Shown: positions 1 to 32,058, counted from the first letter of the stretch. The stretch is DNA of 64,000 nt from Escherichia coli (GCF_051903065.1 NZ_CP178438.1), one strand, 5' to 3'. Made by a program: numbers and translations. Notes: generated by a model not told the origin, from the sequence alone.

Positions 1-2271
1 ATGGCCGTTAAAGCCTCCGGGCGTTTTGTCCCTCCGTCAGCATTTGCCGCAGGCACCGGTAAGGCGTTTACCGGTGCTTATGCATGGAACGCGCCACGCG
101 AGGCTGTAGGGCGCGAAAGACCTCTTACACGTGACGAGATGCGTCAGGTGCAAGGTGTTTTATCCACGATTAATCGCCTGCCTTACTTTTTGCGTTCGCT
201 GTTTACTTCACGCTATGACTACATCCGGCGCAATAAAAGCCCGGTGCACGGGTTTTATTTTCTCACATCCACTTTTCAGCGTCGTTTATGGCCGCGCATT
301 GAGCGTGTGAATCAGCGCCATGAAATGAACACCGACGCGTCGTTGCTGTTTCTGGCAGAGCGTGACCACTATGCGCGCCTGCCTGGAATGAATGACAAGG
401 AGCTGAAAAAGTTTGCCGCCCGTATTTCATCGCAGCTTTTCATGATGTATGAGGAACTCAGCGATGCCTGGGTGGATGCGCATGGCGAAAAAGAATCGCT
501 GTTTACGGATGAGGCGCAGGCTCACCTCTATGGTCATGTTGCTGGCGCTGCACGTGCTTTCAATATTTCCCCTCTCTACTGGAAAAAATACCGTAAAGGG
601 CAGATGACCACGAGGCAGGCATATTCTGCCATTGCCCGTCTGTTTAACGATGAGTGGTGGACTCATCAGCTTAAAGGCCAGCGTATGCGCTGGCATGAAG
701 CGTTACTGATAGCTGTCGGGGAGGTCAATAAAGACCGTTCTCCTTATGCCAGTAAACACGCCATTCGTGATGTGCGTGCGCGCCGCCAGGCAAATCTGGA
801 ATTTCTTAAATCGTGTGACCTTGAAAACAGGGAAACCGGCGAGCGCATCGACCTTATCAGTAAGGTGATGGGCAGTATTTCTAATCCTGAAATTCGCCGG
901 ATGGAGCTGATGAACACCATTGCCGGTATTGAGCGTTACGCCGCCGCAGAGGGTGATGTGGGGATGTTTATCACGCTGACCGCGCCGTCAAAGTATCACC
1001 CGACTCGTCAGGTCAGAAAAGGCGAAAGTAAAACCGTTCAGCTTAATCACGGCTGGAACGATGAGGCATTTAATCCAAAGGATGCGCAGCGTTATCTCTG
1101 CCGCATCTGGAGCCTGATGCGCACGGCATTCAAGGATAATGATTTACAGGTCTACGGTTTGCGTGTCGTCGAGCCACACCACGACGGAACGCCACACTGG
1201 CATATGATGCTTTTTTGTAATCCACGCCAGCGTAACCAGATTATCGAAATCATGCGTCGCTATGCGCTCAAAGAGGATGGTGACGAAAGAGGAGCCGCGC
1301 GAAACCGTTTTCAGGCAAAGCACCTTAACCGGGGCGGTGCTGCGGGATATATCGCGAAATACATTTCAAAAAATATCGACGGCTATGCACTGGATGGTCA
1401 GCTCGATAACGATACCGGCAGACCGCTGAAAGACACTGCTGCGGCTGTTACCGCATGGGCGTCAACGTGGCGCATCCCACAATTTAAAACGGTTGGACTG
1501 CCGACAATGGGGGCTTACCGTGAACTACGCAAATTGCCTCGCGGCGTCAGTATTGCTGATGAGTTTGACGAACGCGTCGAGGCTGCTCGCGCTGCCGCAG
1601 ACAGTGGTGATTTTGCGTTGTATATCAGCGCGCAGGGTGGGGCAAATGTCCCGCGCGATTGTCAGACTGTCAGGGTTGCCCGTAGCCCGTCGGATGACGT
1701 TAACGAGTACGAGGAAGAAGTCGAGAGAGTGGTCGGCATTTACGCGCCGCATCTCGGCGCGCGTCATATTCATATCACCAGAACGACGGACTGGCGCATT
1801 GTGCCGAAAGTTCCGGTCGTTGAGCCTTTGACTTTAAAAAGCGGAATCGCCGCGCCTCGGAGTCCTGTCAATAACTGTGGAAAGCTCACCGGTGGTGATA
1901 CTTCGTTACCGGCTCCCACACCTTCTGAACACGCCGCAGCAGTGCTTAATCTGGTTGATGACGGTGTTATCGAATGGAATGACCAGGAGGTCGTGAGGGC
2001 GCTCAGAAGCGCATTAAAACACGGCCTGAGAAGACCAAACCGTCAGCAAAGAAACGGAAGTCCGTTAAAACCGCATGAAATAGCGCCATCGGCCAGACTG
2101 ACCAGGTCGGAACGAATGCAAATTACCCGTATCCGTGTTGACCTTGCTCAGAACGGTATCAGGCCGCAGCGATGGGAGATTGAGACGCTGGCGCGTGGCG
2201 CGACCGTAAATTATGGCGGGAAAGGATTCACGTATCCGGTCGCTGATGAGTGGCCGGAATTTGTAGTATAA
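1..2271 (+). CDS. A: P2-type replication initiation endonuclease gpA (rolling-circle, HUH family)
   Basis: 756-aa ORF starting at position 1; N-terminus MAVKASGRFVPPSAF matches my recollection of P2 gpA; HxH-like motif HWHMMLF and Tyr-rich YIAKYISK segment; followed by cos and Q/P as in P2 prophage order. Confidence 0.9.
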   Translation: MAVKASGRFVPPSAFAAGTGKAFTGAYAWNAPREAVGRERPLTRDEMRQVQGVLSTINRLPYFLRSLFTSRYDYIRRNKSPVHGFYFLTSTFQRRLWPRIERVNQRHEMNTDASLLFLAERDHYARLPGMNDKELKKFAARISSQLFMMYEELSDAWVDAHGEKESLFTDEAQAHLYGHVAGAARAFNISPLYWKKYRKGQMTTRQAYSAIARLFNDEWWTHQLKGQRMRWHEALLIAVGEVNKDRSPYASKHAIRDVRARRQANLEFLKSCDLENRETGERIDLISKVMGSISNPEIRRMELMNTIAGIERYAAAEGDVGMFITLTAPSKYHPTRQVRKGESKTVQLNHGWNDEAFNPKDAQRYLCRIWSLMRTAFKDNDLQVYGLRVVEPHHDGTPHWHMMLFCNPRQRNQIIEIMRRYALKEDGDERGAARNRFQAKHLNRGGAAGYIAKYISKNIDGYALDGQLDNDTGRPLKDTAAAVTAWASTWRIPQFKTVGLPTMGAYRELRKLPRGVSIADEFDERVEAARAAADSGDFALYISAQGGANVPRDCQTVRVARSPSDDVNEYEEEVERVVGIYAPHLGARHIHITRTTDWRIVPKVPVVEPLTLKSGIAAPRSPVNNCGKLTGGDTSLPAPTPSEHAAAVLNLVDDGVIEWNDQEVVRALRSALKHGLRRPNRQQRNGSPLKPHEIAPSARLTRSERMQITRIRVDLAQNGIRPQRWEIETLARGATVNYGGKGFTYPVADEWPEFVV

Positions 2272-2510
2272 GATAGCGCTTCAGGCTGTAATGCATTGTT
2301 TTGTATAGCATACTACATTTTTTGTAACATCTGTTCATGTTTTCTTTTCTATGCGTCATACTACGGCTATGGGTGGTCAGAGAAACAGGTTGCTGCTTAA
2401 ATGTATAAAAAGAGATGCTTTCATTTTTGATGAGATTTGCCATAACGTGGAGTATATATGGTAAAACTTATGAGACATAACATTTATACTATTATTAAAA
2501 AGGAGATTAT

Positions 2511-4178
2511 ATGCTGAGAACTTTTACAGGACAAAATTATAAAGCATACGAAAGCTTTAAGTTAGATTTAAAGCCATTGACAATATTGTTAGGTGCAAAT
2601 AGTTGTGGAAAAAGTGCACTAATTAACTCTTTGTTGATGTTTTCTCAGACAGTTGATTCAATGTCATTGTCTGACTCTGCTCTACGGCTGAATGGACCTA
2701 AAGTGGGAATGGGGGAAGCATTAAATATTATAAAAAATAAAGATGACTCCAAAACACTTAACTTTAGCTTTGATTTTTCTGATAATAGCGTAGTTAAAAA
2801 TGGCATTGATACTCTGAGAAGAGAAACTTTAGAATCATTTGCTATGATTATGCGATTCACTATACAGACAGTAAAAAATAATGATGAGTTGGTCGCGAAG
2901 GCCAATAATTTGATAAATGAATCTTTGAATGCTATTGTTAATTTTGATGAGTTTGAGGAGGCTAAATTAAATATTATTGCTGATAAATTGTGCCAGTTGA
3001 TTATGCTTTTTAGAGATGCTGGCAATAATATTATGTTTAGCCGGGCTACCTCAGAAAACTTACGCAGATTTATATATGAATGCCCATTGAAGAGAATCAA
3101 AGATTGCCTAACTAAAGTTGTTTCTATTTCAGGAAATAAATTGTCTGCATCTAAAATAAGTTATGACTTCAGATATGATAAAAATAAAGGTGTGGTAAAG
3201 GTTTCGAGATTTGTTCTTCTAAATAAGAATGATGAAAGAATAGTTGAACTGTTACCCAAAAAGAATAATGTCGTTGTATTGTCGGATGTTATCCCTCAAG
3301 AAGTATTTAGAGGATGTAAGTCTGATATCTTAGAAATCATGAATCCTTATTCTTTGGGGCTATTCCCTGTCAATGAAGGACGTGGTTTTTATGTTTTTTT
3401 TGGAAATTCCTACAACCCTGTTGTTAACTTTTTGTCACATGTTGTTTCTCTGGGAGTATTAATGCTTTCAAAAATGTTTGATGGCGAAAATGTTAATCAT
3501 GTCAGCCCGTTGAGGGCATTTCCTCAGCGTTATTATTTATTAGATAAAACAGTCAATCATGCTCAGTTAAATTCTGCTGATGGCTCTGAGTTGGCGGAGA
3601 TTCTGAAGAAAAATACAAAAATAACAGAAAACATAAACCTTCTTCTCGCTGAATTTAACTTAGCGGTTGATATAGTTAGAGTTAATGACATAATTCATAA
3701 GATAGTTATAAACCAAGATGCTGTTAATTTAGAATTGACAGATGTAGGGTTTGGAATATCACAAGTGTTGCCTGTCTTGGTTCAAGCTTATTTGTCACCA
3801 AAGGGCTCGATTACAATAATAGAACAACCAGAAATACATTTGCATCCTAAAATGCAGGCATGGTTAACTGACGCATTAATTAAAATATCTATGCAAGAAA
3901 AGAAAATTTTTATTATTGAAACACATAGTGATGCATTAGTTAGACGGATTAGATTAAGAATTGTTGATGAATCAAGCGAACTTACTGAGGACCATGTGGC
4001 AATCTATCATCTTGAGCGAGATGAAGAGGGAACATCAACCTTACTAAATAGAGTGGCTGTGAATTCTGATGGAGATATCACATGGCCAAATGAGTTTATG
4101 GATGTTGAGATTCAGGATACAATTAGAATACAGGAATTAAAGATACAAAAAATAATGAACTCAAAGGGAGTTCATTGA
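2511..4178 (+). CDS. ABC/OLD-type (AAA_15/AAA_21-like) ATPase, cargo gene 1 of A-Q hotspot; candidate defence ATPase (AriA/AbiLi/PtuA-like)
   Basis: 555 aa; Walker A GANSCGKS near N-terminus; Walker B/D-loop-like IIEQPEIHLHP and H-loop-like ETHSD near C-terminus with ~400-aa insertion between; very AT-rich; strong RBS AGGAG upstream. Confidence 0.75.
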   Translation: MLRTFTGQNYKAYESFKLDLKPLTILLGANSCGKSALINSLLMFSQTVDSMSLSDSALRLNGPKVGMGEALNIIKNKDDSKTLNFSFDFSDNSVVKNGIDTLRRETLESFAMIMRFTIQTVKNNDELVAKANNLINESLNAIVNFDEFEEAKLNIIADKLCQLIMLFRDAGNNIMFSRATSENLRRFIYECPLKRIKDCLTKVVSISGNKLSASKISYDFRYDKNKGVVKVSRFVLLNKNDERIVELLPKKNNVVVLSDVIPQEVFRGCKSDILEIMNPYSLGLFPVNEGRGFYVFFGNSYNPVVNFLSHVVSLGVLMLSKMFDGENVNHVSPLRAFPQRYYLLDKTVNHAQLNSADGSELAEILKKNTKITENINLLLAEFNLAVDIVRVNDIIHKIVINQDAVNLELTDVGFGISQVLPVLVQAYLSPKGSITIIEQPEIHLHPKMQAWLTDALIKISMQEKKIFIIETHSDALVRRIRLRIVDESSELTEDHVAIYHLERDEEGTSTLLNRVAVNSDGDITWPNEFMDVEIQDTIRIQELKIQKIMNSKGVH

Positions 4179-4179
4179 T

Positions 4180-5181
4180 ATGCTTTGTGCTGTTTGTTTG
4201 TGTCCTGAATTTGTTGCTGCTAATATTTCTGATGTTAAAGTTTTTAGCGGTTTTTTTATTGAAACCATTGTTAATGGTGAAAATGAGTTGATTCTTGATG
4301 CTGATGGAAAAATTCGCTTAGGTTATTTAAAGTCTTGCGGAAACAACAAGGATTCTTTTTTGTTTTTTAAGAAGTGGGAGTCTGAGTTATCTAAAGCTCC
4401 TTCAGGCAAGATATTGCGTACACCAGTGCCGAATAGTTCTGAGGATATTAAGGATATAGTTGTTTGTGCAGTTGCTAATGCAGCCACTACTTTTGATAAG
4501 CATATCGTAGTGTTAGATAATAATAGTTACTCTGGATATATTGATGAATTAATCAGGCAAAGGATTAATTTGTTAAATCTTAATAGTATAAGCTTAATAT
4601 CAAAGGATGGTCGAGTGCAGCGTCCTTTGAATTTTATAAAGTTTGATAGTGATTTATCTTGGGTGCTTCAAAGATTGGGGCGTCGCTCTGCTAAAGGATA
4701 TGGTGAAGATGATTTTAATGATTTTATACGGGATATGTTATTAGCTAAGAATTATGAGGTAAAAGATCAAACTAGAGAGGGAGAGTCTCAATCTGGTAAA
4801 AGTGCGGGTGAATTAGATCTTGTTATTGAAGATAAAGGAAATCTATTTGCTATAATAGAAGCATTGATTTTAAAATCTCTAGATCAAGCTAACATATTAA
4901 AGCATTATTCAAAGCTAATTAGTAACTATAATCCTATTAATGTTAAACGCTTGTTTTTAATTGCTTATTATACTGGTGCAAAATTTGATGCTTGGTGTGA
5001 GAGATACATTGATTATCTAAAAGAGATTACTCCGGTAGATATTGGTGTAGAATCTCATGAGATAGTTGGGATTAAAGAAGTGGAGACTCCATATATAGGT
5101 TTGAGAAAAATTGAACATCATTTTAGATATGCGGGAGAACATTATTTTTGTGTTCATTATGCAGTCAAGATGGCTCGGTGA
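4180..5181 (+). CDS. Partner protein of hotspot ATPase, putative nuclease effector (PD-(D/E)xK-like or TOPRIM/DUF4435-like)
   Basis: 333 aa; ATG 1 nt after upstream TGA (translational coupling); motifs GELDLVIEDKG (D-x3-E-x-K) and IETIV..LDADG (E...DxD); AT-rich. Confidence 0.6.
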   Translation: MLCAVCLCPEFVAANISDVKVFSGFFIETIVNGENELILDADGKIRLGYLKSCGNNKDSFLFFKKWESELSKAPSGKILRTPVPNSSEDIKDIVVCAVANAATTFDKHIVVLDNNSYSGYIDELIRQRINLLNLNSISLISKDGRVQRPLNFIKFDSDLSWVLQRLGRRSAKGYGEDDFNDFIRDMLLAKNYEVKDQTREGESQSGKSAGELDLVIEDKGNLFAIIEALILKSLDQANILKHYSKLISNYNPINVKRLFLIAYYTGAKFDAWCERYIDYLKEITPVDIGVESHEIVGIKEVETPYIGLRKIEHHFRYAGEHYFCVHYAVKMAR

Positions 5182-5193
5182 TGTTTAATATGA

Positions 5194-5218
5194 ATGCACC
5201 TATAGGGTGCATCATTTT
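5194..5218 (+). terminator. Putative terminator of the hotspot operon
   Basis: Hairpin ATGCACC-TATA-GGGTGCAT followed by CATTTTG directly after the stop at 5181. Confidence 0.45.
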
Positions 5219-5318
5219 GCATGTTTAAATACGTTCTCTATGTATGTGCGCTAGGCTTGACTGGCGCGCTTGTACTATGTTTATGCAACTGCATTAAAAC
5301 CGACCCATGAAGCGGGCG

Positions 5319-5337
5319 GGCGAGGCGGGGAAAGCAC
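5319..5337. other. cos: P2-type cos site (19-nt cohesive end sequence)
   Basis: GGCGAGGCGGGGAAAGCAC matches the P2 cohesive-end sequence as I recall it; lies between the A-side cargo and portal gene Q, where P2 cos sits. Confidence 0.6.
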
Positions 5338-5506: not shown

Positions 5507-6541
5507 TCAGCCGTTGTCAGTGTCCAGTGAGTAGTTTTTAAATCGGATGACCTCCTGACCGAGCCAGCCGTTTATCTCGCGGATCCTGTCCTGTAACGGG
5601 ATAAGCTCATTGCGGACAAAGACCTTTGCTACTTTCTCAATATCGCCCAGCGACCCGACGTTCTCCGGCTTGCCGCCCATCAACTGAAAGGGGATGCGGT
5701 GCGCGTCCAGCAGGTCTGCGGCACTGGCTTTTTTGATATTAAAAAAATCGTCCTTCGTCGCCACTTCACTGAGCGGGATAATTTTAATGCCGTCGGCTTT
5801 TCCCTGCGGGGCATAGAGAAACAGGTTTTTAAAGTTGTTGCGGCCTTTCGACTTCACCATGTTTTCGCGAAGCATTTCGATATCGTTGCGATCCTGCACG
5901 GCATCCGTGACGTACATGATGTATCCGGCATGTGCGCCGTTTTCGTAATACTTGCGGCGGAACAGAGTGGCCGACTCATTCAGCCAGGCAGAGTTAAGGG
6001 CGCTGAGATATTCCGGCAGGCCGTACAGCTCCTGATTAATATCCGGCTCCAGCAGGTGAAACACGGAGCCGGGCGCGAAAGGTGTCGGCTCGTTGAAGGA
6101 CGGCACCCACCAGTAAACATCCTCTTCCACGCCACGGCGGGTATATTTTGCCGGTGAGGTTTCCAGTCTGATGACCTTACCGGTGGTGCTGTAACGCTTT
6201 TCCAGAAACGCATTGCCGAACACCAGAAAATCCAGCACAAAGCGGCTGAAATCCTGCTGGGAAAGCCACGGGTGCGGAATAAACGTTGAAGCCAGAATAT
6301 TACGTTTGACGTAAATCGGTGAGCTGTGATGTACGGCAGCACGCAGGCTTTTTGCCAGACCGGTAAAGCTGACCGGTGGCTCATACCATCTGCCGTTACT
6401 GATGCACTCGACGTAATCCAGAATGTCACGGCGGTCGAGTACCGGCACCGGTTCACCAAAGGTGAATGCCTCCATTTTCGGGGCGCTGGCGGTCATTTTT
6501 TTTGCCGCTAGTCGCGGTGTTTTCCCTTTTTTCTTGCTCAT
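5507..6541 (-). CDS. Q: Portal protein gpQ
   Basis: 344 aa, size and sequence character of P2 Q; overlaps start of P; conserved position next to cos. Confidence 0.9.
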   Translation of the reverse strand: MSKKKGKTPRLAAKKMTASAPKMEAFTFGEPVPVLDRRDILDYVECISNGRWYEPPVSFTGLAKSLRAAVHHSSPIYVKRNILASTFIPHPWLSQQDFSRFVLDFLVFGNAFLEKRYSTTGKVIRLETSPAKYTRRGVEEDVYWWVPSFNEPTPFAPGSVFHLLEPDINQELYGLPEYLSALNSAWLNESATLFRRKYYENGAHAGYIMYVTDAVQDRNDIEMLRENMVKSKGRNNFKNLFLYAPQGKADGIKIIPLSEVATKDDFFNIKKASAADLLDAHRIPFQLMGGKPENVGSLGDIEKVAKVFVRNELIPLQDRIREINGWLGQEVIRFKNYSLDTDNG

Positions 6542-19830: not shown

Positions 19831-20358
19831 ATGCAGCATTTAAAGAACATTAAGTCAGGTAATCCAAAAACAAAAGAGCAATATCAGCTAACAAAGAATT
19901 TTGATGTTATCTGGTTATGGTCCGAAGACGGAAAAAACTGGTATGAGGAAGTAAGTAATTTTCAGCCAGACACAATAAAGATTGTTTACGATGAAAATAA
20001 TATTATTGTCGCCATCACCAGAGATGCTTCAACGCTTAATCCTGAAGGTTTTAGCGTCGTTGAGGTTCCTGATATTACTGCCAACCGGCGTGCTGATGAC
20101 TCAGGTAAATGGATGTTTAAGGATGGTGCCGTGATTAAGCGGATTTATACGGCAGACGAACAGCAGAAACTGGCGGAATTACATAAGGCAGCTTTGCTTT
20201 CCGAAGCTGAATCCGTGATTTTGCCGCTGGAGCGCGCGGTCAGGCTGAATATGGCAACAGATGAGGAGCGTAGTCGACTGGAGGCATGGGAACGCTATAG
20301 TGTTCTGGTCAGTCGTGTGGATCCTGCAAATCCTGAATGGCCGGAAATGCCGCAATAA
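19831..20358 (+). CDS. G: Tail fibre assembly chaperone gpG
   Basis: 175 aa [21 protein letters not shown]2 G-like. Confidence 0.88.
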
Positions 20359-20457
20359 GTTGTATGAGCTCTGGTGTGAGCTTACATATCTATGGCACAG
20401 AGTAAAGCCTAATCTGACAGTCCGTTCTGTGCCAGTAGCGGACGTTTGAATAAATTA

Positions 20458-20486
20458 TTGACTAACTAAAGTTTTTGGCATTAAAT
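20458..20486 (+). promoter_or_regulatory. Putative sigma70 promoter for the HEPN-motif cargo gene
   Basis: TTGACT, 17-bp spacer, TTAAAT; ~35 bp upstream of GGAG RBS and ATG 20527. Confidence 0.35.
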
Positions 20487-20526
20487 TTTCAATTAAAATG
20501 TTCGCATTGATTTATTGGAGTAAATA

Positions 20527-21480
20527 ATGGATATACATGCAAAAAGAGTTGGCAGTCCACTTTATAAAATTATTATGTACTTAAATAAGTATGAAGAAGA
20601 TACACTGGAAGACATAAAACTTCAGTTTCTTTTAAAAAATTTAAAAACTCATTTCAAGAAACTGTTTTATATGATTACTTACATTAATAAAATTCAAAAA
20701 GATGCTGAGTTCATCAGAAAACATGATGCAACATCAATTGTCAGCATTAGTGCTATTGAGTATTGCTATTATAAAATCAGCACGATATGGGATATTGCAT
20801 ATCAGATAGCTGATAAATTAATTTTCCCAACTAAAAAAAATGGCAATAAATATGATTACCTTGAAAATCATTTCCAGCAATATGCACAGGAATTTCCAGA
20901 TTTGAATTTAAAATGGTATAAGGACTTTAATAAAATAAGAAATAAGATAGTTCATGGAGGGATAACAGTAAATCCTTATTATGTCAACGATGATAATATT
21001 AAAACAAAGATTTGTTTCCAAGCATATGACTCTGATCTAAACGATCTGATTCAACCTCATATGATGTATTCAAATAGATTCAATAACAATATTAATTTTG
21101 CTGATTACTATTTTACCTTTTATACTCATCTTCTCTATTCATATCTTTTTGATTTTTTTGATTTTGTACTTCTTGAGCTAAACAAAGATAAATCACATGA
21201 TTTAGACAATCTTATTCTTGATGATATACCGCACAAATTGTTTGGTGCTCATCATGAAACATGGTTGTTATCTGATGTTGATCAATTTATGAAAATTACA
21301 AGAGAAATGATTTCCCTACAAATAGCTGATGGTTGTTTAAATAAAATTGAGAAAATACCCTCAAGTGATATTGAACATTTTTTTAACAACTTTCCATTTT
21401 GTCTTATGACAAAGGTTAGCTCCGGAGATTGGGTATTGGTTGAGGATAAAGCGGCTGAAACAAAGTCATCGGACACTTAA
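20527..21480 (+). CDS. HEPN-motif (Rx4H) protein, Abi-like candidate, cargo in the G-FI (Z/fun) hotspot
   Basis: 317 aa; very AT-rich, Lys/Asn/Tyr/Phe-rich; motif RNKIVHGG (R-x4-H); own promoter-like elements. Confidence 0.55.
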   Translation: MDIHAKRVGSPLYKIIMYLNKYEEDTLEDIKLQFLLKNLKTHFKKLFYMITYINKIQKDAEFIRKHDATSIVSISAIEYCYYKISTIWDIAYQIADKLIFPTKKNGNKYDYLENHFQQYAQEFPDLNLKWYKDFNKIRNKIVHGGITVNPYYVNDDNIKTKICFQAYDSDLNDLIQPHMMYSNRFNNNINFADYYFTFYTHLLYSYLFDFFDFVLLELNKDKSHDLDNLILDDIPHKLFGAHHETWLLSDVDQFMKITREMISLQIADGCLNKIEKIPSSDIEHFFNNFPFCLMTKVSSGDWVLVEDKAAETKSSDT

Positions 21481-21774
21481 ATTTTTTTTGTGCCAAAGTC
21501 TACTCCTCGCTCGTCACAGGCTTTGGCATTCGTTTCAACAACCAAGTGATAGCATATATTGTGACCTGCACCCCGTTGATTCATACATCCTCGATGTAAG
21601 CAATCCCTTGAGAACGTCCACTCCTCGCTCTTAGCAGATCACACGGTTCTTCAAACGATCCGCTTCGTACCAGAAACGAACTTTTATCTCAAATTTGAAC
21701 CTTTTAGTGGATGACGACGTTTGTGTCTTCAAGTAGTCTTAAAAGCATGCGGATAGTGCATAGGAAAAGCAGAA

Positions 21775-22611
21775 GTGATCGATGACCCACTACCAGAAAA
21801 CTGGCAAGACCTCCAGACAGGGGTCCAACGTATATTCCGTAATGTTGGCTTGTTTGCAGAAGTCGAGGTCGATTTAGAAACCCCGCGTGGCTCGGTGAAT
21901 GTGGATGTTCTTGCTACAGATGTTAGGAGCGTGGACAAAATCAGATACATTGTGGAATGCAAAAACTGGGGTAGTTCTATACCACAGACGGTGGTCCATT
22001 CGTTCACCACGGTAATGCATGAAACCGGGGCTAATATTGGATTTATTATTTCAAAGCACGGGCTTCAGCAGGGTGCTAAACAGTACACTCAAAACACCAA
22101 TATTATTGGGATGACATACCTTGAGTTCCAAAAAAGGTATTTTGAGGCTTGGTGGAATAGATACTTTTGTCCACGTATCGGTGATGCTGCAGACGAACCG
22201 CTTCAGTACGTCGAACCAATCAACTCTAAACGAGATCGCGAATACGCCAAGCTAAGCCTTCAAGCACAAGAGAAGTTCGATCAGTTAAGGCAAGAGAAAG
22301 GTGTATCAGTAGTGGTTCTCTCTATGCTCAATTACAAGTTTATGTCGAAAGCATTAAACACTGGTAACTTGCTGGAAGTCCCAAATAATCTGGATGATTT
22401 TAAGAACAGAGTTCTCTCCCGAATATGTCCTCACATTGAATGGCATTGTGATACGTACAGAGAGCTGCTAGAGCTCATCTTGCAATACTTATCAGTCACA
22501 AAAGCAGAGTTTGATGCAATATTTGGTCGGGCCATCTTTGAACCGCCAAGTAGTATCACGGGGGTTACGGCTGAAGGTCCCCCTTTAGACGATGGTATTT
22601 ATCATCATTAG
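21775..22611 (+). CDS. PD-(D/E)xK restriction-endonuclease-like (Mrr_cat-like) protein, cargo in the G-FI hotspot
   Basis: 278 aa, GTG start; N-terminal VNVDVLATD ... YIVECKNW (D ... E-x-K nuclease signature). Confidence 0.55.
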   Translation: MIDDPLPENWQDLQTGVQRIFRNVGLFAEVEVDLETPRGSVNVDVLATDVRSVDKIRYIVECKNWGSSIPQTVVHSFTTVMHETGANIGFIISKHGLQQGAKQYTQNTNIIGMTYLEFQKRYFEAWWNRYFCPRIGDAADEPLQYVEPINSKRDREYAKLSLQAQEKFDQLRQEKGVSVVVLSMLNYKFMSKALNTGNLLEVPNNLDDFKNRVLSRICPHIEWHCDTYRELLELILQYLSVTKAEFDAIFGRAIFEPPSSITGVTAEGPPLDDGIYHH

Positions 22612-22732
22612 TTTCATACATAAACCATGCTCCCGCATGTCCGCATTTCGCTCAAAGCAGACTGTCAGATTTGATAGCGTTTGGGCTATGTAAACTGTCA
22701 GTCGGAAAATGAGTGTGTGCAAATCAGGACAG

Positions 22733-29775: not shown

Positions 29776-32058
<2,283 letters not shown>

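Follow-up and report, generated by a model that had tools for sequence, protein, structure and literature searches.

A P2-like prophage within a 64,000-nucleotide stretch of Escherichia coli DNA (GCF_051903065.1, NZ_CP178438.1; the whole stretch is called the window below) carries a cassette of two open reading frames (ORFs), ORF555 and ORF333, between the phage replication gene A and the cos site. Judging from sequence comparisons, this pair is a divergent branch of the two-gene system HEC-03 and of the NsnB-NsnC core of the system Menshen. We consider it probable that the cassette is an anti-phage system that works by means of an ATPase-controlled nuclease, and our confidence in each single mechanistic step is lower than in this overall statement. 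New here are the assignment of the pair to the HEC-03/NsnBC clade, the partner protein that combines a degenerate PIN domain with a restriction-endonuclease (REase) fold, the organization lacking NsnA and having a hypervariable insert in the ATPase, and a series of partner architectures among relatives.

A preliminary description of the same DNA had read this AT-rich block as a defence module made of an ATPase and a nuclease-like partner. Its sequence-level observations were all confirmed. The architectural class is borne out as well, in that an ABC ATPase is translationally coupled to a protein whose structural model includes an REase-fold domain. Its candidates for the nearest family (PARIS, Septu, and AbiL) do not hold, as the NsnB and HEC-03 ATPase models score far higher and the partner proteins of those systems are absent. 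Nor does its other option, an undescribed family in the strong sense, suit a pair that appears to branch from the HEC-03 and NsnB-NsnC core.

ORF555 Resembles the ATPases of Menshen and HEC-03

The ATPase layout reported earlier for the first gene was recovered in full. Pfam families AAA_15 and AAA_21 match ORF555 as two halves (residues 6-146 and 359-477), and the Walker A, Walker B, and H-loop motifs are present as described (Table 1). Among the PADLOC models, ORF555 matches NsnB of Menshen (E = 2.3e-51), the HEC-03 ATPase (5.2e-43), and PDC-M55A (4.7e-41), whereas its matches to AriA (3.3e-28), GajA (about 1e-10), PtuA (4.4e-10), and AbiLi (1.1e-9) are much weaker. By these matches, ORF555 is an ABC ATPase of the NsnB/HEC-03 clade. 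Its closest structural neighbours are the heads of Rad50 and SMC proteins, and it has a head of this kind without a coiled coil.

An alignment of 38 family sequences, called A3, is the basis for the residues designated as invariant (Table 1). Within ORF555, an insert of about 235 residues (positions 91-325) has a mean family identity of 24%, versus 63-75% for the ATPase core. This insert is a candidate sensor or specificity surface. The run INHVSPLRAFPQRYYLLDK (residues 329-347), which begins the stretch 3498-3587 (residues 330-359), is the most conserved of the ATPase. Residues 334-359 are also the lowest-confidence part of the AlphaFold model of ORF555, with pLDDT values (predicted local distance difference test) of 30-47. 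The model leads us to suggest that the stretch 330-359 may become ordered only in a dimer, with nucleotide, or with the partner protein.

Several other systems were considered and rejected on the identity of the second gene. PARIS requires AriB with a DUF4435/Toprim domain, to which ORF333 has no match. AbiL requires AbiLii, which likewise is not matched by ORF333, and the AbiLi score of ORF555 is only 1.1e-9. Septu requires the HNH protein PtuB, and ORF333 shows neither an HNH match nor an HNH fold, the PtuA score of ORF555 being only 4.4e-10. For Gabija, the defining partner is absent, as no GajB-type helicase is encoded. Of the two proteins for which the preliminary description had suggested profile searches, ORF555 matched NsnB and the HEC-03 ATPase, and ORF333 gave neither a DUF4435 nor an HNH match.

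PARIS, Septu, Gabija, and OLD do resemble the cassette in that an OLD-type ABC ATPase holds or regulates a nuclease, and PARIS and OLD are also cargo of P2/P4 hotspots. They differ in their effectors, which are Toprim domains (AriB, GajA, OLD) or HNH domains (PtuB) rather than a PIN-like domain joined to an REase fold. Given ATPase scores far below those of NsnB and HEC-03B, the absence of the defining second component, and the predicted folds of ORF333, it is extremely improbable that the cassette is a variant of PARIS, AbiL, or Septu in which an AAA_15/21 ATPase releases a Toprim or HNH effector.

ORF333 Is Predicted to Join a Degenerate PIN Domain to an REase Fold

The only Pfam match of ORF333 is to PDDEXK_4, with an E value of 0.12. 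Full-length homologues form a small family of 53 clusters at 90% identity and are found in Enterobacterales, Pseudomonas, and Shewanella. The AlphaFold model of ORF333 (pLDDT 87) shows two domains. The N-terminal domain has a PIN-like fold without the PIN catalytic acids; its strand 1 is followed by C-I-C-P, and the family has no conserved acid there.

The C-terminal domain is predicted to be the effector nuclease. Residues E211, D213, E227, Q197, H242, and K245 are invariant in the ORF333 family, and in 69 distant homologues with other architectures the corresponding residues vary little or not at all. Provisionally, the model lets us read the acidic residues of this domain as the catalytic site of a predicted nuclease; the assignment is provisional because the canonical (D/E)xK lysine is missing.

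An exhaustive search identified 836 representative proteins that carry the C-terminal domain of ORF333, mostly at their own C termini, in proteins of 150-1700 residues. In a sample of 69 carriers, LRR-Roc-COR proteins account for 12, and the remainder includes one AbiTii protein, one nSTAND3 protein, and one protein that matches Lamassu LmuA over its N-terminal 440 residues. A stand-alone copy of the domain (294 residues) is embedded in a type I restriction-modification operon. Such a distribution is as expected of an effector domain. The domain has no Pfam model, though it is common in immune-type architectures, and in our opinion it merits a name as an effector domain.

Relationship to HEC-03

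HEC-03 (Hma-embedded candidate 3) consists of an ABC ATPase and a PIN protein, and its anti-phage activity has been validated (Payne et al., bioRxiv 10.1101/2024.01.29.577857). Both of its genes are needed, and inducing it is toxic (bioRxiv 10.1101/2024.01.29.577857). When 100,044 species genomes were scanned for the ATPase family, 80 loci emerged, whose partner genes were then classed by ORF analysis. Short ATPases (about 450-470 aa) are followed by PIN proteins of 160-180 residues that start with a canonical vvDTNV sequence, and PADLOC identifies these loci as bona fide HEC-03 (HEC-03B ATPase, E = 8e-127, 422 bits, full length; HEC-03A PIN, 7e-37 and 1e-27). Long ATPases of Bacteroidota (520-580 aa) are followed either by proteins of 140-190 residues that correspond to the N-terminal domain of ORF333 only, or by proteins of ~313 residues in which this domain is joined to an unrelated C-terminal half. 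The long ATPases of gammaproteobacteria are followed by full ORF333 homologues.

These partners can be arranged as a series that runs from an active PIN domain alone, to a degenerate PIN domain alone, to a degenerate PIN domain joined to one of at least two unrelated C-terminal domains. The series allows one to ask what role the PIN fold has, and whether the system can do without NsnA once the ATPase insert diversifies.

ORF555 matches the HEC-03B model with 146 bits in two stretches, and from its sequence we place it in the same clade as the HEC-03 ATPase and in a different subfamily. Like HEC-03, the cassette is a two-gene operon in which an ABC ATPase is directly followed by a PIN-fold protein. 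The motifs TDVGFGISQ and EQPEIHLHP are common to ORF555 and bona fide HEC-03 ATPases, and querying with the ORF555 family brought up bona fide HEC-03 loci. In profile-profile comparisons, the N-terminal domain of ORF333 matches the group of N-domain-only partners (89.9%, E = 1.7e-6, 119 columns), and this group in turn matches the HEC-03A PIN (95.4%, E = 1.9e-8, 143 columns). In the resulting alignment, the catalytic Asp of DTNV corresponds to a hydrophobic residue (L7/I7) in ORF333.

The cassette also differs from HEC-03. ORF555 is longer by about 90-100 residues, with a larger and hypervariable insert. ORF333 lacks both a match to the HEC-03A model and the DTN aspartate. In addition, ORF333 has an extra REase-fold domain of 180 residues. 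With this domain added and the PIN aspartate lost, the chemistry predicted from the model is DNA cleavage rather than VapC-like RNA cleavage.

Where upstream proteins were tested, HEC-03-type relatives adjoin HmaB, PglX, or LmuB-like genes and not NsnA, and these surroundings are defence neighbourhoods.

Some partner architectures deserve separate mention. Partners made of the N-terminal domain only occur at loci L019, L023-L027, L029-L031, L033, and L035-L039, from Bacteroidota and others. At L021 and L028, the partners have 313-315 residues, with an ORF333-type N-terminal domain and an unrelated C-terminal half that contains GPVDF...VE(M/I)KF, which by eye looks PD-ExK-like. The alternative C-terminal halves match no Pfam family except for one RNA-ligase match (L050), and those of L021 and L028 match no PADLOC family either. 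At L050, the ORF of an HEC-03-type PIN protein extends into a Pfam RNA_ligase region (5.8e-20), which is either a fusion or an artefact of ORF calling.

Relationship to Menshen

Menshen comprises NsnA, NsnB, and NsnC (Millman 2022; analysed by Li et al. 2025, PMC12065111). In NsnB, an amide replaces the Walker B glutamate (E-N), an Arg replaces the Q-loop Gln, and GxG replaces the SGG signature (PMC12065111). NsnC joins an inactive PIN domain to a variable C-terminal effector, for which 15 families have been described (9 BECR, 2 Toprim, PLD, DUF4160, PB-UF1, and DUF2103-like), and AlphaFold 3 (AF3) models depict NsnB tetramers that clamp the PIN domain of NsnC with their DUF3696 tails (PMC12065111).

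NsnB is the top PADLOC model of ORF555, and residues R335, G413-F-G415, and E438-Q439 match the motif substitutions of NsnB. The DUF3696 tail, a defining feature of NsnB, is detected by Pfam in some members of the ORF555 family (5 of 38 at E<=0.001; 18 of 38 at E<=0.1) but not in ORF555 itself, whose model shows a long C-terminal helix (residues 534-552). At the level of predicted folds, ORF333 has the layout of NsnC, with an inactive PIN-like N-terminal domain and a C-terminal effector.

The cassette differs from Menshen in that it contains no NsnA (ParB-DUF262 plus ParBDB); in the window, gpA lies directly upstream. Moreover, ORF333 matches no NsnC model in PADLOC, and its REase-fold effector falls outside the 15 described NsnC families, which include no active REase. 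Relative to the 345-position NsnB model, ORF555 also contains about 170-200 inserted residues. The published Menshen survey (PMC12065111) could not find NsnA-less pairs because it was seeded on NsnA, and it does not mention HEC-03. Placing the pair in an HEC-03/NsnBC clade connects two defence systems that are treated separately in the literature we consulted.

The best PADLOC match of ORF555 and the NsnC architecture of ORF333 would also suit a three-component Menshen system whose NsnA, a ParB-DUF262 sensor, is encoded elsewhere and acts in trans. However, Pfam detected no DUF262-family gene in the called surroundings of the six loci found by protein look-up (L004, L006-L009, L012), an ORF of appreciable size is absent immediately upstream of the ATPase at the five close genome-scan loci (L015-L018, L020), and no upstream ORF in the whole genome scan has both DUF262 motifs. 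The upstream neighbours at HEC-03-type loci are HmaB, PglX, or LmuB-like, and HEC-03 functions with two genes. Furthermore, the pair moves as a unit between chromosomal sites, a conjugative element, a lambdoid prophage, and the P2 hotspot, which it occupies in either orientation, so it could not rely on a fixed partner in trans. We regard this arrangement as very improbable.

A Mobile Cassette in a Phage Defence Hotspot

The cassette lies between gpA and cos/Q, and its composition is foreign to the phage backbone, with a guanine plus cytosine (GC) content of 0.33 over 2272-5230 versus 0.53 and 0.55 in the flanks. These are the traits of cargo in the P2 gpA-cos-gpQ hotspot, and they agree with the earlier account of an AT-rich two-gene block inserted at this point. 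The right border of the slot is formed by GGCGAGGCGGGGAAAGCAC, which we take to be the P2 cohesive end. The same sequence is also present in P4 cos-proximal clones of Table S2 of Rousset 2022. The preliminary description had further considered this position of P2 a hotspot for defence cargo, in accordance with the findings of Rousset et al. 2022 (PMC9122126); unrelated defence cargo can take the place of the cassette at this slot.

Two E. coli alleles that are 88% identical in DNA give ratios of nonsynonymous to synonymous substitution (dN/dS) of 0.05 for the first gene and 0.14 for the second, which argues that ORF555 and ORF333 are real genes under purifying selection. The ATG of ORF333 follows one base past the TGA of ORF555, which indicates that the two are translationally coupled, as had been proposed. 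The previously noted ribosome-binding site (RBS) of the first gene was also found (AAGGAG). Downstream of ORF333, the hairpin of the supposed terminator is present with a stem of 8 bp, and the T tract behind it is weak (CATTTTGCAT).

The locus in the window is 99.6% identical over 2946 bases to GenBank AM157364 ("Bacteriophage P2-EC5 proviral ORF555 and ORF333", E. coli ECOR5). The genes have been in GenBank since 2006 under this P2-EC5 entry, recorded as hypothetical, and are also catalogued in hotspot tables; this much was already known. Table S5 of Rousset 2022 has an entry "AAA_15/AAA_21 + hypothetical" and lists WP_024249463 and WP_032259585 at the P2 gpA-gpQ slot, in each case with another allele of the second gene next to it, as well as a second allele of the pair, WP_071290099/WP_071290100, as a pair. 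The text of Rousset 2022 gives no sign of the pair among the validated systems, and the active loci named in the main text include no AAA_15 pair, though a negative test of the pair there may exist. The pair is also absent from a 2026 preprint on P2/P4 hotspots.

Among 5426 complete E. coli genomes, the cassette occurs in 5, and the second allele (proteins 48% and 42% identical) occurs in 5 more, for a total of about 10. A copy of the second allele (L004:1987-4689, E. coli GCA_044695805) resides in the gpA-gpQ slot of another P2-like prophage, where it is inverted relative to gpA and Q. This inversion points to independent insertions and to a promoter of its own. In E. coli strain 7CC, which has the 88%-identical allele, an IS3 element is located between a truncated gpA and the cassette (L003:2245-3407); that prophage is probably defective, with the cassette still intact.

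In all 12 relatives examined (L003, L004, L006, L007, L008, L009, L012, L015-L018, L020), the ATPase gene is directly followed by an ORF333 homologue, with a gap of -17 to +12 nt. Identity to ORF555 is 33-50% for the ATPases, and identity to ORF333 is 28-43% for the partners. The hosts and settings comprise E. coli allele 2, Pseudomonas fluorescens, Shewanella, a lambdoid prophage, Proteus, a conjugative element, and five species from the genome scan. The neighbouring genes are different at each locus, and the loci lie in prophages, on a conjugative element, and at chromosomal sites. The two genes form a conserved and mobile cassette.

Mobility of this kind could also serve a non-immune module. 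The pair might be an addiction or toxin-antitoxin-like stabilizer of the prophage, or a pair that processes DNA for the phage (a nuclease and a Rad50/SbcC-like ATPase), with a part in the replication, the recombination, or the superinfection exclusion of P2 relatives only. This would be in keeping with the Rad50 and SMC heads as nearest structures of ORF555, with the AAA_21 family being known also from an AbiEii-type toxin-antitoxin context (Pfam description), and with the cassette always residing on mobile or island DNA. In contrast, ORF555 has no coiled coil and there is no Mre11-type partner, the cassette is rare in E. coli, and its slot is also filled by unrelated defence cargo. The homologous HEC-03 protects against phages and needs both genes to do so, and further copies of the nuclease domain are found in Lamassu-like, Abi, and STAND settings. 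A non-immune role is, in our view, unlikely, though it is the strongest of the competing explanations.

Proposed Mechanism and Points That Weigh against It

We propose that oligomeric ORF555 would hold ORF333 inactive, with its C-terminal helices clamping the degenerate PIN domain as AF3 models suggest for NsnB-NsnC; it is because of these models (PMC12065111) that we assign a putative docking role to the C-terminal helix of ORF555. The hypervariable insert of ORF555 would sense a phage product or phage DNA, such that a separate NsnA sensor would not be needed. Because its Walker B motif is E-Q, which suggests slow hydrolysis, ORF555 would probably act as a slow ATP-binding switch rather than as a motor. 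Upon sensing, the nuclease domain would be freed or activated and would cut the DNA of the phage, the host, or both. Such cutting would halt the production of phage, and the cell would probably pay a price. That the two proteins bind each other, what triggers them, and what they cut are all inferred.

A number of observations weigh against this proposal and the assignments on which it builds. ORF555 itself has no DUF3696 match in the Pfam profile search, and ORF333 has no match in PADLOC (even at E<=10), PHROG, NCBIfam, or PDB sequence searches. Direct profile comparison of the ORF333 N-terminal domain with the HEC-03A PIN is weak (33% over 27 columns), and the homology of the two therefore rests on the intermediate group of N-domain-only partners. 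Those Bacteroidota partners lack an effector domain, which does not fit a pure adaptor role of the degenerate PIN; because of these relatives, the degenerate PIN may do more than dock. In the C-terminal domain, position 229 lacks the canonical (D/E)xK lysine and residue 230 shows no conservation, and an REase fold may bind DNA without being active, as happens in some NsnA proteins. Finally, our literature search found no paper with a functional test of ORF555/ORF333.

Some of these points would be accommodated if the REase-fold domain of ORF333 were an inactive, DNA-binding sensor, with toxicity arising from residual PIN activity or from the ATPase and its insert. The missing lysine, the inactive REase sensor domains of NsnA proteins, and the Bacteroidota relatives that function, if at all, with an N-domain-only partner would all suit this possibility. 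We judge it improbable beside the invariance of the acidic residues of the domain and its recurrence in immune-type proteins, and we retain an ATPase-controlled nuclease as the preferred explanation.

We also speculate, tentatively, that HEC-03 and Menshen belong to a single modular family, founded on an NsnB-type ATP switch to which a PIN-fold adaptor docks. The PIN domain itself would have been the ancestral effector, as in HEC-03. Lineages such as that of ORF333 would have inactivated the PIN domain, kept it only as a docking handle, and added interchangeable nucleases, in this case an REase-fold domain that Roc-COR, STAND, and Lamassu-like proteins also have. Menshen would have added NsnA as an external DNA sensor, whereas the two-gene forms would sense through the ATPase insert. 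If this is true, the P2 cassette is a minimal version of Menshen that has its sensor in the ATPase and kills by DNA cleavage.

To a specialist, an ABC ATPase plus nuclease defence system as P2 hotspot cargo will be unsurprising; the link between HEC-03 and Menshen and the swap of effectors should still be useful. Of the two proteins, PADLOC models recognize the ATPase alone, and the pair would be called by none of the PADLOC system rules, which leaves this hotspot cargo unannotated. The cassette is experimentally tractable, given that it is only 2.7 kb long, originates from E. coli, and is located in a phage that can be lysogenized.

Features of the Locus and Other Observations in the Window

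The coordinates of the cassette and its surroundings are compiled in Table 1. A scan for sigma-70 promoters in 2272-2510 gave only weak matches and no convincing consensus. The cassette likely has a promoter of its own, because the other allele sits inverted in another P2-like prophage. An ORF of 71 aa (2228-2443, minus strand) lies antisense to the last part of gpA and to the DNA upstream of the cassette, and it is probably spurious in this AT-rich DNA.

Table 1. Positions of the ORF555/ORF333 cassette, its motifs and domains, and the flanking phage genes in the window
Feature	Position	Strand	Remarks
P2 gpA replication endonuclease	1..2271		Labelled "replication endonuclease" at an identical locus of E. 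coli; gene already open at the first letter of the window
AT-rich block	about 2272-5260		Between P2 replication gene A and cos/portal gene Q
AT-rich upstream region of cassette	2272..2510	+	Presumed promoter site
RBS AAGGAG of ORF555	2500-2505	+	Read in sequence, five bases before ATG 2511; also RBS in GenBank AM157364
ORF555	2511..4178	+	555 aa; ABC ATPase, assigned to NsnB/HEC-03 clade (AAA_15/AAA_21); TGA at 4176-4178
Walker A GANSCGKS (residues 28-35)	2592..2615	+	G28, N30, S31, G33, K34, S35 invariant in A3
Hypervariable insert (residues 91-325)	2781..3485	+	Helical bundle plus four-stranded sheet (model)
SPLRAFPQRYY (residues 332-342)	3504..3536	+	Invariant in A3; R335 at Q-loop position
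TDVGFGISQ	3738..3764	+	ABC signature changed to GxG (G413-F414-G415); invariant in A3
Walker B IIEQPEIHLHP (residues 436-446)	3816..3848	+	E438-Q439 replace the usual D-E; E438, Q439, P440, E441 invariant
H-loop ETHSD (residues 470-474, H472)	3918..3932	+	E470, H472, S473 invariant
C-terminal segment and long helix (residues 521-552)	4071..4166	+	DUF3696-like; candidate docking site for ORF333
RBS AAGGGAG of ORF333	4164-4170	+	Inside the end of ORF555
ORF333	4180..5181	+	333 aa; ATG at 4180, one base past the ORF555 TGA
ORF333 N-terminal domain (residues 1-145)	4180..4614	+	PIN-like fold, degenerate active site (AlphaFold model)
ORF333 C-terminal domain (residues about 150-333)	4628..5181	+	REase (PD-(D/E)XK-like) fold; predicted effector nuclease
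Core motif GELDLVIE...IIEA (residues 210-228)	4807..4863	+	E211, D213, E217, E227 are candidate metal ligands
Hairpin 3' of ORF333 (ATGCACCTATAGGGTGCAT)	5194..5222	+	Stem of 8 bp at 5194-5212; possible terminator
P2 cos cohesive-end sequence GGCGAGGCGGGGAAAGCAC	5319-5337		Exact match; right border of cargo slot
Portal gene Q	5507..6541	-	

A second AT-rich island of the prophage (20400-22700, GC 0.36-0.42) lies directly behind the tail-fibre assembly gene (19831..20358). It contains ORFs at 20527..21480 (317 aa) and 21775..22611 (278 aa), neither of which has a convincing PADLOC or PHROG family. The island corresponds to the other variable cargo locus of P2-like phages, at the Z/fun position, and may hold another unannotated system.

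Just beyond the end of the prophage, two near full-length overlapping ORFs occupy 29776-32058, one of 760 aa on the minus strand and one of 750 aa on the plus strand. The former has what we take to be the size of the pyruvate formate-lyase PflB, and this would fit the P2 integrase adjoining pflA in a related locus (L002).

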